DNA from: an uncultured candidate division Zixibacteria bacterium
GTDB taxonomy: Bacteria; Zixibacteria; MSB-5A5; GN15; FEB-12
Reading direction: 5' to 3'
Length of the DNA stretch: 64,000 nucleotides
NCBI GenBank assembly: GCA_963735035.1
Contig: CAVTJJ010000004.1
Span: 832,001-896,000 of the forward strand
The notes under the pieces are model-generated. The model was given only the letters and a program-made list of their open reading frames with translations, did not search any database and had not been told where the DNA came from. Positions 17,866 through 38,109 of this stretch are shown in pieces (positions within the stretch are counted from its first letter, which is position 1; each line of letters begins with the position of its first letter). The position numbers were made by a program, and so were the translations under genes.

Positions 17866-17955
17866 ACGACGTTGGCGGGTTTGAAGCAGACCCGCCCTAC
17901 TATCGGATTTGAATTCTTGTAGGGCAGAACCCCTTGTGGTTCTGCCAAGACTGTG

Positions 17956-17990
17956 CCCGGCAGATGTCCACATCTGCCGGGTTTCTTTTT
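17956..17990 (+). terminator. REP-derived hairpin likely acting as groEL terminator
   Basis: cccggcagatg-tcca-catctgccggg + tttcttttt; same hairpin recurs near 61451. Confidence 0.7.
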
Positions 17991-18293
17991 GCGTGTGTGG
18001 GCCCTGGCGCGGAATCTCACCCGTTGGGCCTGTTGATCCCCCCGAATGTTGTTGCGTCAGGTCTTGCGTCGCCAAAGGCGGCGTGTGACCTGACGCGTTG
18101 CAGCGACTTAGGGAATCGATATCGTGCGTGGAATGATGCGAATTGAGCCAACACAGCTATTGTAGGTCGGGATGCTTGCCATCCCGACATACGATCCCAC
18201 CCGTTGGGTGGGGTACGGGTTGTTACGTGCGTGGTGGACGTCCTCGTCTACCACGTTCTCGTTAGCGTAAGTTCGACAACCCTTGGGTGCCCC

Positions 18294-33747: not shown

Positions 33748-34062
33748 TCTGGTCGCCTTCTGACACCTATAACAACCTTATAGGATAACTGTTTTTGGCT
33801 CAAATGGCAAGCAAAAACAAGCATGTATCATTATGTCTTTCAATTAGTTGCGGAGGTTGGGCGACTTGTTTTTTTGATCCTAGTCAGAGTTCTCAAAACA
33901 CGTCCGAATCAGAGGTCGAGAGATCAGCTTTCGGGGCTTCCCAGGGGAAGGCCGAGTCTGCTAGCATGGGAAATTTGCGACGAAAAGTTTTGCAAATTCC
34001 GGCCCGGATCAACGTCTTTGGTTGCAATGGCACTGGGAAAACATCTCAACAAAGGTAAGAAT

Positions 34063-35328
34063 ATGCTGAAACGAATCATGCTGGCCGCTTCTCTGTCTTT
34101 GATAGTAGTGGCATCTGTGGCTGCGCAGGCCAATAACATTGTCGATACAACCTTCGCAGTCAGTAAAGTCAACGATCATCTTTTCGTGGTGACAGGTCGT
34201 GTCGGCCTGTCTGTTAATTTTGTCGTGTCGGCCGGAGCCGACGGAGTCCTGCTGGTCGACGCCGGTAGTTCAGAAACGGCCGGAAAGTTGAGCCGCTTCC
34301 TGGATTCGCTGACCGACGTGCCAATCAAGTATGTGATTACGACTCATCCCCACGATGACCACTATGCGGGTAATCAGAACTTCGGGCCGGATGTACGCAT
34401 CATGGCCGACAGCAACGCCGCCGCGAGAATGAGCGGCAAATATTGTTCGCTGCCGCCGTTGCCGGGCACTCGGGGTGTGGACATAGCCCTGTCGAAAGAC
34501 ACCTCGATATTCTTCAATGGCGAAGAAATACGATTGATTCATGTGCCGACGACCCACACCGACGGTGATCTGATGGTCTTCTTCTCCAAGTCCAAAGTGC
34601 TTTGCGCGGGTGATCTGGTCTTTGCAGACATTATCCCGTTCGTTGACCTGGCCTCGGGCGGCAATGTTCAGAATTACGTAGCCAACACCAAACACCTCAT
34701 GGATACGCTGCCAGCGGACGTCAAGATCGTACCCGGCCACGGGCGAATCTACAGCCGGGAAGACTTGAAAGCGGTCTACGAAATGATGACTTATACTACC
34801 GGGGCAGTGAACGAGGCAAGAAGTCAGAATCGGACGGCGGAGCAGGTCCTTCAAGATCCCGGATTGAGTCGCTGGGCGGCCTGGGATGGCTCTCAGCGAA
34901 TCACCCAGATGAGCTACTGGATTCCATGTATCTTCCGCAGCCTTGAAGGTGCTGGACCCGCGTCCAAACCATCGATCTGTGCGCCGTTGACAGAGGCCAT
35001 AGTTCACGGTGGGATCGACTCGGCCCTGGCGCTGTATAGTAGATTGAAGAAAGCTCAACCGAATGGATACGATTTCGAAGAGGATCAACTGAACATTCTT
35101 GGCTATGAATTGCTGAACCGGAAGATGATGCCTGAGGCGAAGGCCATTTTCAATCTCAACTGTACAGAGCATCCTGAGTCAGGCAATGCTTTCGACAGCA
35201 TGGGTGAGTTCTACATGAATACCGGCGAGCGCGATCTGGCGATTCAGTTCTATCAGAAGTCGCTTGAGAAGAATCCTGAAAACACCAACGCGGTAGCAAT
35301 GCTTAAGCGACTAATGAGCGGCCAGTAA
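34063..35328 (+). CDS. Exported MBL-fold metallo-hydrolase with C-terminal TPR
   Basis: THPHDDH, HTDGD, AGD, PGHG; LNILGY...NAFDSMGE TPR. Confidence 0.88.
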   Translation: MLKRIMLAASLSLIVVASVAAQANNIVDTTFAVSKVNDHLFVVTGRVGLSVNFVVSAGADGVLLVDAGSSETAGKLSRFLDSLTDVPIKYVITTHPHDDHYAGNQNFGPDVRIMADSNAAARMSGKYCSLPPLPGTRGVDIALSKDTSIFFNGEEIRLIHVPTTHTDGDLMVFFSKSKVLCAGDLVFADIIPFVDLASGGNVQNYVANTKHLMDTLPADVKIVPGHGRIYSREDLKAVYEMMTYTTGAVNEARSQNRTAEQVLQDPGLSRWAAWDGSQRITQMSYWIPCIFRSLEGAGPASKPSICAPLTEAIVHGGIDSALALYSRLKKAQPNGYDFEEDQLNILGYELLNRKMMPEAKAIFNLNCTEHPESGNAFDSMGEFYMNTGERDLAIQFYQKSLEKNPENTNAVAMLKRLMSGQ

Positions 35329-35335
35329 GTTCGGT

Positions 35336-35785
35336 CTAAGCAAAGGTGCGGTACTTAGCCGATTTCAAACGCGTCCGGTGGGGATGTTTCACCGACGGCA
35401 CGCAGAAGTCCGGGCCTTCGTGACGTCTCATTCGGACGGTCAGGTCCTGGCAGCCGCGACAGCGCCGGATACTTCCGAGTGCTTCAGCCTTGATCCGTCG
35501 CTTCTTTTCGTGGGTTGGAGCATAAACCGGATGCTTGACGATTTCGTAACCTTTAGAAGGGTCGTGGTCGTCGAGGAATCGTACCCCGGCTTCGATCTCG
35601 TTAGTGCCGTCCTTGTAGATCGTCGCGCCGGGACATTCAATGATAACATGATCATCGGTGGAAGATGTCTCGATGAAAATTTCGGACGCAGTCAGGAGTT
35701 CTGAATTACAGTCCAGGCAGACCAGGGTACCGTTTCTCTGAATCAGAGGGCGTCCGCAATTGATGCAGGTCGAGGTCGAGTTCAC
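35336..35785 (-). CDS. Hypothetical Zn-ribbon protein
   Basis: CINC...CLDC and CRGC; start uncertain (35785/35812). Confidence 0.7.
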   Translation of the reverse strand: MNSTSTCINCGRPLIQRNGTLVCLDCNSELLTASEIFIETSSTDDHVIIECPGATIYKDGTNEIEAGVRFLDDHDPSKGYEIVKHPVYAPTHEKKRRIKAEALGSIRRCRGCQDLTVRMRRHEGPDFCVPSVKHPHRTRLKSAKYRTFA

Positions 35786-35822
35786 TTTTGCACCTGTTTC
35801 TCGAAGTTTCATGAGAGATAGA

Positions 35823-35838
35823 TGCAAGCGGACTGCCG
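35823..35838 (-). promoter_or_regulatory. Putative sigma54 promoter
   Basis: CGGCAGTCCGCTTGCA, GG-N10-GC. Confidence 0.5.
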
Positions 35839-35998: not shown

Positions 35999-36328
35999 TT
36001 ATCCTTTGAATAATAGCACCAATGAGCACAGGGTGACCGTCACCGGCAGCGCCACGCCGAAACTGACCGGCAATATGAGCGACGCCAGGAAAGCGAGCAC
36101 CAACGCTGGCACCACCAGGTATTTGATCGCCGCGATAGTCATCATCACCAGACGAGACACGACAAACACGATCAGCACGCCCAGCGTGATGTAGGCTGCG
36201 ATCAAGCCGGTCTGGCCGAAGTTGTCGAGGATGTATTGCCTTGCGGCAACAATCAACCCCGAGTAATCGCCTGCTTTGGCGATGGCTTCTTCAGCCAGAA
36301 TCTTCGCTTTTGTCAAAAGCTCAAACAT
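35999..36328 (-). CDS. Hypothetical membrane protein
   Basis: MFELLTK start overlapping the upstream gene; 2-3 TM segments. Confidence 0.7.
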   Translation of the reverse strand: MFELLTKAKILAEEAIAKAGDYSGLIVAARQYILDNFGQTGLIAAYITLGVLIVFVVSRLVMMTIAAIKYLVVPALVLAFLASLILPVSFGVALPVTVTLCSLVLLFKG

Positions 36329-36548
36329 CGGCCGCTTCTTCCAAAGGTTCAATGGTCAACGATGATTCGCCCACTCGACTCAGTCCCACCATTCGGTGGG
36401 TCAGGAAATTCTGAGTGGTAATCCACTTGTGGGACACGTCCATGATCTCATCCTGATCGACGTCGCTGATCCAGTCGAGAATGATATGATCGATGTTCTC
36501 TTCGTTCACGACGACGTCGTCCATGGTCAACACAAACTTTACTTTCAT
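36321..36548 (-). CDS. Small acidic hypothetical protein
   Basis: 75-aa ORF, protein-like composition, coupled to downstream gene. Confidence 0.7.
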   Translation of the reverse strand: MKVKFVLTMDDVVVNEENIDHIILDWISDVDQDEIMDVSHKWITTQNFLTHRMVGLSRVGESSLTIEPLEEAADV

Positions 36549-36592
36549 AACATACCGTTCCGGCTTTGTGTTTCTGTTCCGTTCCGGTACTG

Positions 36593-36608
36593 TGCAATGG
36601 GGATGCCA
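36593..36608 (-). promoter_or_regulatory. Putative sigma54 promoter
   Basis: TGGCATCCCCATTGCA, GG-N10-GC, ~45 nt upstream of the ATG. Confidence 0.6.
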
Positions 36609-36755
36609 CCCGCTGGAGATATCGCGCGGGGGTGCTTAAGCTGCTTCTGGTCAACGGGTTAGGGTGGGACGAACGGGATCGTCGGGCCACCCCTCAGCGG
36701 TGTCGAGCATGGGGCTGTCCGCCAGGTATGGGGGGAAGGCCATAGAGTGGGGAGT

Positions 36756-37171
36756 AACAATAAGACGGGCGGCCGGTTAGGCCGCCCGCTGGAAATCGAC
36801 TGCAGTAGTCAACCGAGAACTGGTAGACTCGGTTGCCCCAAGACAGGGGCCGGTTTCAGTCGCCGGTTGAAAGAACTACGACTCAGTGTCGTCGGTCAAT
36901 CAAAGCGACAAGGCTACCGGAAGGCCATGGCAGACGCGGAGGGGAACCTCGGCGCTGCTCCAAGTCCCTTTGGACTACCAAAATCCCGCTATCCCTCGCG
37001 GCAGTGACGGAGAACCGTCCGACGACCGAGAGATAACCTCACTCCATAAGCATTCCTCCATCCTTGAGATGTGCTCTACTAGCGGTGAGGTTACGAGACG
37101 GGGATTGCAGTGACTCTAGCGCCGGACCCGACGTTATTGGGCAGCCGGGAGACGGCATCGTCTGATCTCGT
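36756..37171 (-). ncRNA. Candidate structured non-coding RNA of unknown class
   Basis: TTGACA-17-TATGAT promoter (37206-37178), nested long-range stems, terminator hairpin 36766-36788, no credible ORF. Confidence 0.6.
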
Positions 37172-37259
37172 GCTTATATCATAGTTATGAAGGCCGTTGT
37201 TGTCAAGGGATTTGTGGTTATGAGGCGGGGGTGCCACACAGTAGCTCCGGTGGATCAGT

Positions 37260-37416
37260 CTTGTAGGTCAGGAGCCCTGAGGCTCCTGACGAAATGTTAG
37301 TTCAAATATACAAGTGTCAGGAGGCTAAGGCCTCCTGACCTACTAGACTCAAGGGGCAGACGAGGACGTCTGCCGCCCACTCAAAATTGGCGGGTTCGAA
37401 GACGGACCCACCCTAC
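37260..37416. repeat. GTAG-type REP doublet plus further palindromes
   Basis: gtaggtcaggagccctgaggctcctgac ... gtcaggaggctaaggcctcctgacctac (inverted pair). Confidence 0.8.
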
Positions 37417-37479
37417 GGGCCTTGACATTCGCGGCACATACGACTAAATTTTGACAAACATATCAGTCAGGCGGGCATT

Positions 37480-38109
37480 ATGATCATCAGGATAACCGTA
37501 AGCATAGTCGTGGCGCTGGTTTTCGCCGCGTCTTCATGGGCACAAGGGGTTATGCTCAATTTCAACGAAGATGGTTCGTACGTCGAAGCGGGGTATCTCT
37601 CCAACCGGTTCGGAGCCGGGGGCGGTGCCGGTCTGGGCTTTACCCGGGGAGCCCTGGATCTCGGAATAGAATGTGGTTTTATGGGGGGCGATTATGTGAG
37701 TTCCACAAGCATAGCGCAGGAAGCTGCATTTGATTTCACCCGTCTCTCCAAGTTCGAAAGTCCCGTGAGCTTTCAGCTCCGCGAAGCGGTGGGCTTGAGT
37801 ACAAACAGTAACATCACCCTGGCCCTGGGACCCGCCCTGTATCTGAGAGCCGTCGATCCTCTCGGAGCAACTTGTGTGGTCGGTGGTGGTGTGTCCGTCT
37901 TGCAGGGATTGTCCGGCGGGTCCACTCGGGAGGCGGTGTTTGTTTCTGACATGAGTCTTGCACTGGGATATCGTACAGGGGGAACTTGTGTCAGTGTGGT
38001 AGGTTCGGCGTCGTTTGGCGACTACCTTACGACGTATTCTCTTGGTCTGAATTTCAATTTCATCGGCAAGGAGGCTCGGTTCGGGAGGGTGTACGAGACG
38101 TGGGAGTAG
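37480..38109 (+). CDS. Hypothetical exported beta-strand-rich protein
   Basis: Signal peptide, Gly/aromatic alternating strands. Confidence 0.6.
   Translation: MIIRITVSIVVALVFAASSWAQGVMLNFNEDGSYVEAGYLSNRFGAGGGAGLGFTRGALDLGIECGFMGGDYVSSTSIAQEAAFDFTRLSKFESPVSFQLREAVGLSTNSNITLALGPALYLRAVDPLGATCVVGGGVSVLQGLSGGSTREAVFVSDMSLALGYRTGGTCVSVVGSASFGDYLTTYSLGLNFNFIGKEARFGRVYETWE

Follow-up and report, generated by a model that had tools for sequence, protein, structure and literature searches.

RNAIII of Staphylococcus aureus, a regulatory RNA of many hairpins and several hundred nucleotides (nt), has a dedicated promoter and terminator, displays C-rich loops, contains an internal ribosome-binding site (RBS) to which access is governed by structure, and encodes a functional peptide of 26 amino acids (aa). 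The 6S RNAs are single irregular rods of about 180–200 nt with a large central bubble and paired 5′ and 3′ ends; they bind the sigma-70 RNA polymerase and serve as template for product RNAs, and we know of no 6S RNA that has an RBS and a very short open reading frame (ORF) at its core. RNAs of the CsrB/Rsm type carry many repeated GGA motifs, mostly in hairpin loops, and in the leader-peptide attenuators (trp, his) a short ORF close to the promoter precedes an intrinsic terminator, with the operon lying downstream in the same orientation. Several earlier large orphan RNAs conserved across genera had unusual biochemistry. The bar gene of lambda is a two-codon minigene. Start–stop ORFs of Escherichia coli (yecJ, hslR) were shown to bind ribosomes and have been proposed to be regulatory (Meydan et al., bioRxiv 10.1101/520783), and a two-codon minigene regulates the axe-txe toxin–antitoxin operon (PMC8708949). 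The present analysis concerns a stretch of 64,000 nt (the window) from an uncultured candidate division Zixibacteria bacterium (assembly GCA_963735035.1, contig CAVTJJ010000004.1, positions 832,001 to 896,000). Its minus strand carries, at 36756..37206, what we take to be a genuine and previously undescribed structured RNA of about 415 nt. Judged from sequence, this RNA is independently transcribed, highly structured and non-coding, and it belongs to a new RNA family that is present in at least two taxonomic families of one order of Zixibacteria.

The RNA, for which all coordinates below refer to the minus strand, is preceded by a near-consensus promoter of the sigma-70 type, TTGACA-17-TATGAT (37206..37178), in which 11 of 12 positions match; promoter-like sites in the 2-kb region number three, against 1.1 expected. 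The transcript probably starts at about 37171, and the structured RNA would then occupy 36756..37171, as delimited by folding and alignment. It is present as a single copy in its own genome (3.6 Mb, six contigs, 96.9% complete). The minimum free energy (MFE) of the segment 36756-37180 is −179.6 kcal/mol, compared with −152.3 ± 5.6 kcal/mol for 100 dinucleotide shuffles (z = −4.88), none of which reaches the folding energy of the native sequence. At the 3′ end lies an intrinsic terminator (36756..36789), made up of a hairpin of 10 pairs, nine of them G-C (36789..36765), and the U-rich tail CTTATTGTT. Across 24 sequences of the RNA family, 95.8% of the cells in the terminator helix are paired, compensatory changes occur in nine of 11 pairs and none of 500 shuffles equals this; it is the cleanest helix of the family. 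The original prediction, made from the letters of the window alone, had proposed a structured RNA with a sigma-70 promoter and a terminator of its own, and each of these three elements is borne out. Its statement that the region holds no ORF beyond about 28 codons was mistaken, as ORFs of 32, 39 and 48 codons occur on the same strand and ORFs of 67–86 codons on the other. None of the mechanically called ORFs of the region has a Pfam match, and none is conserved beyond what nucleotide identity would lead one to expect.

The search for relatives was confined to the phylum Zixibacteria, in which 285 genomes were searched for the 75-aa protein encoded by the first gene downstream of the RNA. With BLAST, the RNA is found only in two other genomes of the genus: in one (G002) it is 72–76% identical over the full length and in the other (G001) it is recognizable in patches. 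No homolog of the RNA was returned beyond the genus. The alignment of the three genomes shows that the promoter, a core and the terminator are kept. Outside the genus, a covariance model built on the genus core (R1) produced only weak matches, of 18–20 bits in four genera; in the 108 family genomes it reached about 20 bits in two genera, and both of these loci carry a promoter and a terminator at matching distances. It was synteny with the 75-aa gene that opened up the family. With this gene as the anchor and distances counted from its ATG, 30 loci of taxonomic family f1 and nine loci of family f4 were compared. A TTGAC-N15-19-TAnnnT box lies 563–741 nt before the ATG in 25 of the 30 f1 loci, and 34 of 39 additional loci have one at the corresponding position; a terminator is found near −250 to −212 in 29 of the 30, two of these calls being doubtful. 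The nine f4 loci all have the terminator and a sigma-54 promoter, and the Shine–Dalgarno (SD) sequence and AUG described below are seen in seven of them (one of the nine is masked by N). In family f2, a related 3′ motif and the terminator are kept, farther from the 75-aa gene, and at loci of f3, f5, f9, f10, f16 and f20 the RNA was not seen at the position upstream of that gene.

A second covariance model (R2), comprising the 3′ motif and the terminator, was built on 24 f1 sequences. At E ≤ 0.01 it finds matches in 73 of 98 genomes of f1, 11 of 33 of f4, five of 14 of f3 and two of five of f2. Among the best 30 R2 matches, 27 sit 200–230 nt upstream of the 75-aa gene, one (G107) is at a contig end and two (G064 and G105) are elsewhere; the usual position of the RNA is about 210 nt upstream of an operon driven by a sigma-54 promoter. 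A few of the weaker R2 matches do not represent an RNA of this kind; the one at 17929-17992 of the window is only the terminator after a GroEL-like gene. When homologs were folded without their terminators, 31 out of 31 were more stable than dinucleotide shuffles, with a mean z of −2.93 and 19 of the 31 below −2. A search for homologs and for covariation, suggested along with the original prediction, has yielded both relatives in f1 and f4 and compensatory changes in the terminator.

No known RNA family accounts for the locus. Rfam 15 gave no match over the whole window at the gathering score, and at E ≤ 10 the segment 36300-37700 gave five chance-level matches only, the best of them at 16.9 bits against a cut-off of 70; at E ≤ 5 nothing recurrent appeared among 20 homologous loci. 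ARAGORN found neither a tRNA nor a transfer-messenger RNA (tmRNA) in the window. Elsewhere in the genome, RNase P RNA (RF00010, at C3:153829, 273.8 bits), tmRNA (RF00023, at C3:964901, 183.7 bits) and signal recognition particle (SRP) RNA (RF00169, at C3:180114, 72 bits) are all present above their cut-offs and none of the three matches the region, which agrees with the earlier remark that hallmarks of tmRNA, RNase P and SRP are missing from it. The RNA family is new relative to Rfam 15, and a literature search on noncoding RNA of Zixibacteria brought up no paper on such an RNA, as judged by title and abstract. Of the two identities originally offered, a divergent 6S-like RNA (considered below) and a new large class of noncoding RNA, it is the second that gains support: there is no match in Rfam 15, the unit of promoter, body and terminator is kept across many genera, the terminator has compensatory changes and there is support for a hairpin after the mini-ORF.

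The best conserved element of the family was absent from the original prediction. GGAGG followed after 5–10 nt by AUG occurs in 68 of 69 RNAs and has every appearance of a textbook translation-initiation region. In the window, the SD sequence GGAGG is at 37055..37059, SD and AUG together span 37059-37045, and the AUG opens a mini-ORF, AUG GAG UGA (37039..37047), that would be read as Met-Glu-stop, i.e. two sense codons and then a stop. The AUG is invariant; the spacer measures 7–8 nt in 52 of the 68 RNAs, U stands at −1 in 59 and GA follows the AUG in 46. Taking the RNAs as a whole, the most widespread elements are CCUCAC, GGAGGA followed by UAUGGA, and CGCAAUACGA just before the terminator. 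The canonical anti-SD CACCUCCUUUCU is present at the 3′ end of the organism’s 16S rRNA, and GGAGG stands upstream of 6.8% of 1755 long ORFs (with crude start calls) as against 0.7% of random sites; by these signs it is an organism that uses SD sequences.

As predicted from sequence, the mini-ORF has at most three codons in 41 of the 68 RNAs and at most two in 29 of them; no sense codon follows the AUG in two RNAs (strict AUG-UAA), a single one in 27 and two in 12. For other AUGs of the same RNAs, the frame has three codons or fewer in 39 of 322 cases (12%). The stop codons of the 41 mini-ORFs are divided between UGA (16), UAA (14) and UAG (11). Across the 68 ORFs there is no conservation of the peptide: their second codon is variable, and no similarity is seen among the peptides of the 27 longer ones. 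It appears that the shortness of the ORF has been selected and that the start site has been kept, with no product being kept.

The SD is predicted to be masked by a C-rich element upstream of it. This anti-SD-like element, CCUCACCGC at 37081..37090, has the family consensus UCACCGCC and lies about 30 nt upstream of the SD; TCACCGCC is found with two mismatches or fewer in 46 of 68 RNAs. When 31 full RNAs were folded by partition function, the mean pairing probability was 0.80 for the five bases of the SD, compared with 0.60 for all bases, and the usual MFE partner of the SD is an upstream CCUCC or CCUUC. Analysis with RNAalifold of a 59-sequence segment-wise alignment pairs the CC.CC of UCACCGCC with the GG.GG of the SD, and the pairs recovered from this alignment were those of the SD/anti-SD helix and the terminator only.

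On the other side of the mini-ORF, a hairpin that we call P3 (GGUUAUCUCUCGG ... CCGCGAGGGAUAGC, 36988..37037) begins 2 nt after the stop codon. Its sequence changes by genus, being GGUUAUC/GAUAAC, GUCUUCAGC/GCUGAAGAC, GUCUGUUUCC/GGAAACAGAC or GUCCGCCGGGGAUU/AAUCCCGGCGG. To place the structure relative to the ORF, MFE folds were made of the 85 nt after AUG+5 in 68 RNAs, each folded segment beginning at +5. Structure begins between +5 and +19 from the AUG in all 68 segments (median +10), with eight pairs or more in 65 of them; in the 41 RNAs with a mini-ORF it begins at −6 to +10 nt relative to the point where the stop codon ends. In a 12-sequence MAFFT alignment, the pairs of P3 are 71% formed, against 34–56% when slid by 1–3 columns, and the covariation score is 0.354, against 0.15–0.20 when slid. 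The evidence that a hairpin follows the ORF is moderate.

It is difficult to account for an invariant AUG at optimal spacing without assuming that initiation complexes assemble at it, and the presence of an early stop of any kind suggests that ribosomes start at this site and must be kept from ploughing through the structured body. It is in our judgement an even call that the RNA works by ribosome docking, as a stand-alone, gated regulatory RNA rather than a protein-coding one, and we have grouped it with the ribosome-sensing or leader-like regulatory RNAs. Once the SD had been unmasked, a 30S or 70S initiation complex could form on the mini-ORF, for which the anti-SD helix would have to give way, as would the base of the P3 hairpin that follows. 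The ribosome would then terminate at once and so act as a bound ligand, which remodels or protects the RNA without translating its body. The output would be an altered activity, conformation, element accessibility or lifetime of the remaining RNA: by opening these two helical parts, the docked ribosome could switch how the RNA is folded, how accessible its C-rich element and 3′ motif are, or how stable it is. The C-rich CCUCAC loops, along with the conserved single-stranded motif AUCCGCAAUACGA that stands ahead of the terminator, are candidates for the working parts. A bolder version, which we hold to be rather doubtful, is that this is a dedicated ribosome-docking RNA and the translational counterpart of 6S RNA. 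It would be abundant and would serve solely to trap ribosomes as they initiate, on a start–(one codon)–stop site gated by the anti-SD; it would sense or buffer free ribosomes or initiation capacity, and would signal this to other RNAs or to proteins through its C-rich loops and its 3′ motif.

A number of observations weigh against ribosome docking or against parts of it. The support for the SD/anti-SD helix is thermodynamic only; as the SD sequence never varies, this helix cannot show covariation. The hairpin after the ORF has an average z of −1.81 against mononucleotide shuffles, with 28 of 68 RNAs below −2, and the covariation of P3 is reached by 16 of 500 shuffles. The ORF runs for 7–55 codons in 27 of the 68 RNAs, so that a very short ORF is not obligatory. 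RNAalifold returned no pairs at all from three MAFFT alignments, of the 5′, initiation-region and 3′ domains, and because global alignments are poor, most of the RNA body is without a family-wide structural model. A k-mer search of the organism’s own genome for sites complementary to the 3′ motif gave 10-mer matches at about background. As to transcription, five short contigs of a freshwater-sediment metatranscriptome, 80–93% alike, cover 36820-37149 and another covers the 75-aa gene. This is a weak hint of expression, since the contigs stem from relatives and could be DNA carry-over; among public sequencing runs none of the organism itself was found, all matching runs had small shares (≤ 0.11), and stretches that they leave uncovered carry no information.

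The remainder of the RNA is best described from the consensus fold computed for the genus from its three genomes; compensatory changes are seen in 17 of the 89 pairs of this fold. The nested pairings originally proposed are retained in part. Those of aatcccg/cgggatt, taacctcac/gtgaggtta and tctctcg/cgaggga are found in the consensus fold, as are the two 3′ hairpins and the terminator; atcagacga/tcgctttgat, ggctgcc/ggtagcc and cggcgct/agcgccg are absent from it, and the fold instead has CGGCUGC paired with GCAGUCG, and GCAGCGCC...GCGUCUGC as a local hairpin. Towards the 5′ end there is a genus-specific hairpin, CCCGG...(CUGCCC loop)...CGGG (37125..37147). The 5′ hairpin of many other genera has CCUCAC(A) in its loop, and 18 of 21 non-redundant RNAs contain CCTCAC at a distance of some 50–90 nt from the 5′ end. 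Downstream of P3, the genus consensus fold contains two small conserved hairpins, GUCC-AAAG-GGAC and GCAGCGCCGAGG...CCUCCGCGUCUGC (36930..36975), which show little covariation because they are nearly invariant. The 3′ domain has two hairpins, CCCC...GGGG and CAACCGAG...CUCGGUUG (36810..36849), the second with compensatory changes. A 5′–3′ closing helix is unsupported: when pairing between the 5′ end and the segment before the terminator was scored in 31 RNAs, the mean z was −0.29.

The single-stranded 3′ motif (36791..36809) stands between the last of these hairpins and the terminator; the window has the diverged form ACUACUGCAGUCGAUUUCC, where the family consensus is AUCCGCAAUACGAUU. No consistent intramolecular partner of this motif was found. 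It should be mentioned that, in other genomes, the 3′ module (CCGYAAURCGAUU and the terminator) is also seen immediately behind two unrelated protein-coding genes, adjoining their stop codons, with R2 scores of 35–36 bits (L126, G052:C5, 559-625; L127, G043:C86, 1592-1654). The module may be a more general 3′-end element, for example a protein-binding site, that is not private to the RNA.

Downstream of the terminator and on the same strand, there follow an inverted-repeat-like element, a sigma-54 promoter, the 75-aa gene, a gene for a small membrane protein and one for a basic zinc-ribbon protein, with dciA and gyrB farther on; this gene order is kept in G002, G001 and G072. The sigma-54-type promoter, TGGCAT-N5-TTGCA (36593..36608), is near-perfect and would drive the operon. 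Its core GGCAT/TTGCA is invariant in four of four aligned genomes, and GGCA[CT]-N5-TTGCA stands about 65 nt before the ATG in 25 of the 30 f1 loci, with the pattern present in nine of nine f4 loci as well. The inverted-repeat-like element, TATGGC-N-CCCCATA (36727..36744), lies between the terminator and this promoter, about 120 nt upstream of the latter, and takes the form TATCCCA...TATGGG in f4; it is probably the site of the operon’s activator, an enhancer-binding protein, and lies outside the RNA. The sigma-54-like promoter for the downstream genes had been foreseen in the original prediction and was there held to favour a stand-alone RNA. That view is supported both by the conserved promoter between terminator and gene and by two genomes in which the RNA occurs in full, from promoter through initiation region and 3′ motif to terminator, with no 75-aa gene within about 1.6 kb downstream (L123, G064:C51; L124, G105:C29). 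Both are draft genomes in which the 75-aa gene is on another contig, and each unlinked RNA may be a relocated copy, a second copy or an assembly artefact. The linkage of RNA and operon is strong, not absolute.

The first gene of the operon (36321..36548) encodes an acidic hypothetical protein of 75 aa that is present in 266 of the 285 phylum genomes. It is 57–93% identical across the phylum and has an invariant block, WI..NFL..M.GL..VGESSLTIEP. No Pfam or NCBIfam family matches it, nothing in a protein atlas came above 0.75, and the 719 database homologs are without exception named hypothetical. The AlphaFold model (predicted local distance difference test score, pLDDT, 80.8) has a long beta-hairpin, two helices and a small sheet, and no fold match to it was found in the PDB at E ≤ 0.001. 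The genes after the 75-aa gene, at 35336-35827 and 35999-36352 (both on the minus strand), keep their synteny and match no family. One of them encodes a small protein with hydrophobic helices; a protein of 163 aa combines a CxxC...CxxC zinc ribbon at its N terminus with a C-terminal half that is very basic, and is possibly a nucleic-acid binder. Between the operon and dciA–gyrB there is a gene for a metallo-beta-lactamase-fold/tetratricopeptide repeat protein (33823-35328, plus strand), which is found in this genome only when compared with G002, G001 and G072. On the other side of the locus, two hairpins that resemble repetitive extragenic palindromic (REP) elements lie just upstream of the RNA promoter, at 37257-37348 on the minus strand (GTCAGGAGGCC..GGCCTCCTGAC and GTCAGGAGCC..GGCTCCTGAC).

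The constant position of the RNA before the operon raises the possibility that it is a cis-acting leader or attenuator, in which transcription from the sigma-70 promoter would extend to the 75-aa operon and translation of the mini-ORF would decide between termination and read-through. RNA and operon are co-oriented, the great majority of the best R2 matches have the 75-aa gene at a near-constant distance, and an SD, an AUG and a short predicted ORF upstream of a terminator, as in 68 of 69 RNAs, recall the layout of the leader-peptide attenuators. Against this, the mini-ORF has no fixed or regulatory codons and is separated from the terminator by about 250 nt of structured RNA, and the sigma-54 promoter with its upstream element comes between the terminator and the gene. 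No antiterminator signal emerged from the 24 clean terminator calls: for each terminator strand, pairing with its own upstream sequence was better than in a cross-species control in only 14 of the 24 cases. This outcome and the conserved sigma-54 promoter both speak against a simple attenuator; G064 and G105 have complete copies away from the 75-aa gene, and f10, a family without the RNA, keeps the sigma-54 promoter of the operon. We consider a leader of this kind unlikely. Similarly improbable in our estimate is a decoy or sponge, whose masked RBS would mimic those of target mRNAs and titrate CsrA or another repressor, as CsrB/RsmZ do. The genome has a csrA gene (C4:1519983), the core presents two GGA motifs some 12–14 nt apart (GGAGGA ... 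AUGGA), and the RNA shares with CsrB-type RNAs their size range, a strong promoter and terminator of their own, and purine motifs containing GGA. These motifs are enriched 1.4-fold only (231 against 167 expected in 24 RNAs; nine in the RNA of the window against 6.3 ± 2.2 in shuffles) and there are no repeated GGA loops; the invariant AUG and the apparently selected early in-frame stop would be left unexplained. A CsrB-like sponge was rejected on the GGA counts.

The same two features, an invariant AUG at optimal spacing and an excess of ORFs of 1–3 codons, are left without a role if the RNA is a plain trans-acting antisense RNA, in which CCUCAC loops or the 3′ motif would pair with mRNAs, in the manner of RNAIII of S. 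aureus or RNAs of the RoxS type, and the SD and AUG would merely form an internal helix, with ribosome binding playing no part. There is something to be said for this, in that CCTCAC is the most widespread hexamer (the 18 of 21 RNAs noted above), CCUCAC is often displayed in loops closed by unrelated stems of 5–10 base pairs (G004, G015, G063, G069), and the 3′ motif is single-stranded between hairpin and terminator. The genus of the window, however, is without the 5′ CCUCAC loop hairpin and its 3′ motif has diverged; no gene for Hfq (PF17209) was found in the 96.9%-complete genome, and in the search with the 3′ motif no complementary target stood out in the organism’s own genome. We would give antisense pairing of this sort little chance of being the explanation. 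A 6S-like RNA that binds the RNA polymerase holoenzyme is far less probable still. The role is without an assigned RNA, as there is no match to RF00013 genome-wide at E ≤ 1 and no other 6S candidate in the genome, and the RNA described here is stand-alone, structured and non-coding, with its own promoter. It nevertheless fails the RF00013 model, both in 36300-37700 at E ≤ 10 and in the window at the gathering score (46.4 bits). At about 415 nt it is roughly twice the size of 6S RNA, it is multi-branched in the MFE and genus consensus folds with no family-wide rod or central bubble, and its conserved core is an RBS with a mini-ORF; the 6S-like identity offered in the original prediction is for these reasons unsupported. 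Least probable of all is that the RNA is the mRNA of an unannotated small protein. The strong SD and the AUG would suit it, as would the ORFs of 41–55 codons in a few genomes, but ORF length varies from 1 to 55 codons with unlike peptides, the other ORFs of the region have no Pfam match, and the length differences between homologs are not multiples of three.

Orphan large RNAs kept across many genera are rare finds, and this one holds a built-in clue to its working. Selection seems to have kept a perfect, masked RBS together with, in most lineages, an ORF of non-coding length, and the idea of the ribosome as a ligand can therefore be put to the test in vitro, even though the host is uncultured. 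If it is correct, this would be the first described family-specific RNA of Zixibacteria.

Among the described systems closest to such an RNA are RNAIII and the start–stop ORFs and minigenes. With RNAIII it has in common the plan of a regulatory RNA of many hairpins that has a dedicated promoter and terminator, C-rich loops and an RBS to which access would be controlled. It differs in that the ORF has 1–3 codons or is of random length, no peptide is conserved, there is no relation in sequence or in Rfam, and the host belongs to another phylum. The lack of a conserved peptide, with ORFs of 1–55 codons, likewise sets it apart from dual-function small RNAs of the RNAIII/SgrS type in general. With the start–stop ORFs and minigenes it shares an SD-like sequence and an AUG with a stop at once or one codon later, and the emphasis on ribosome binding and not on a product. 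Here the SD is predicted to be masked and a strict AUG-stop is seen in two of 68 RNAs only; moreover, those elements sit in or beside protein-coding mRNAs and adjust the expression of the gene concerned, whereas in Zixibacteria the site is at the centre of a dedicated RNA of about 415 nt that is found in many genera. Should ribosome docking prove to be its mode of action, start–stop and minigene elements would pass from being a curiosity within mRNAs to being the organizing principle of a stand-alone RNA family.

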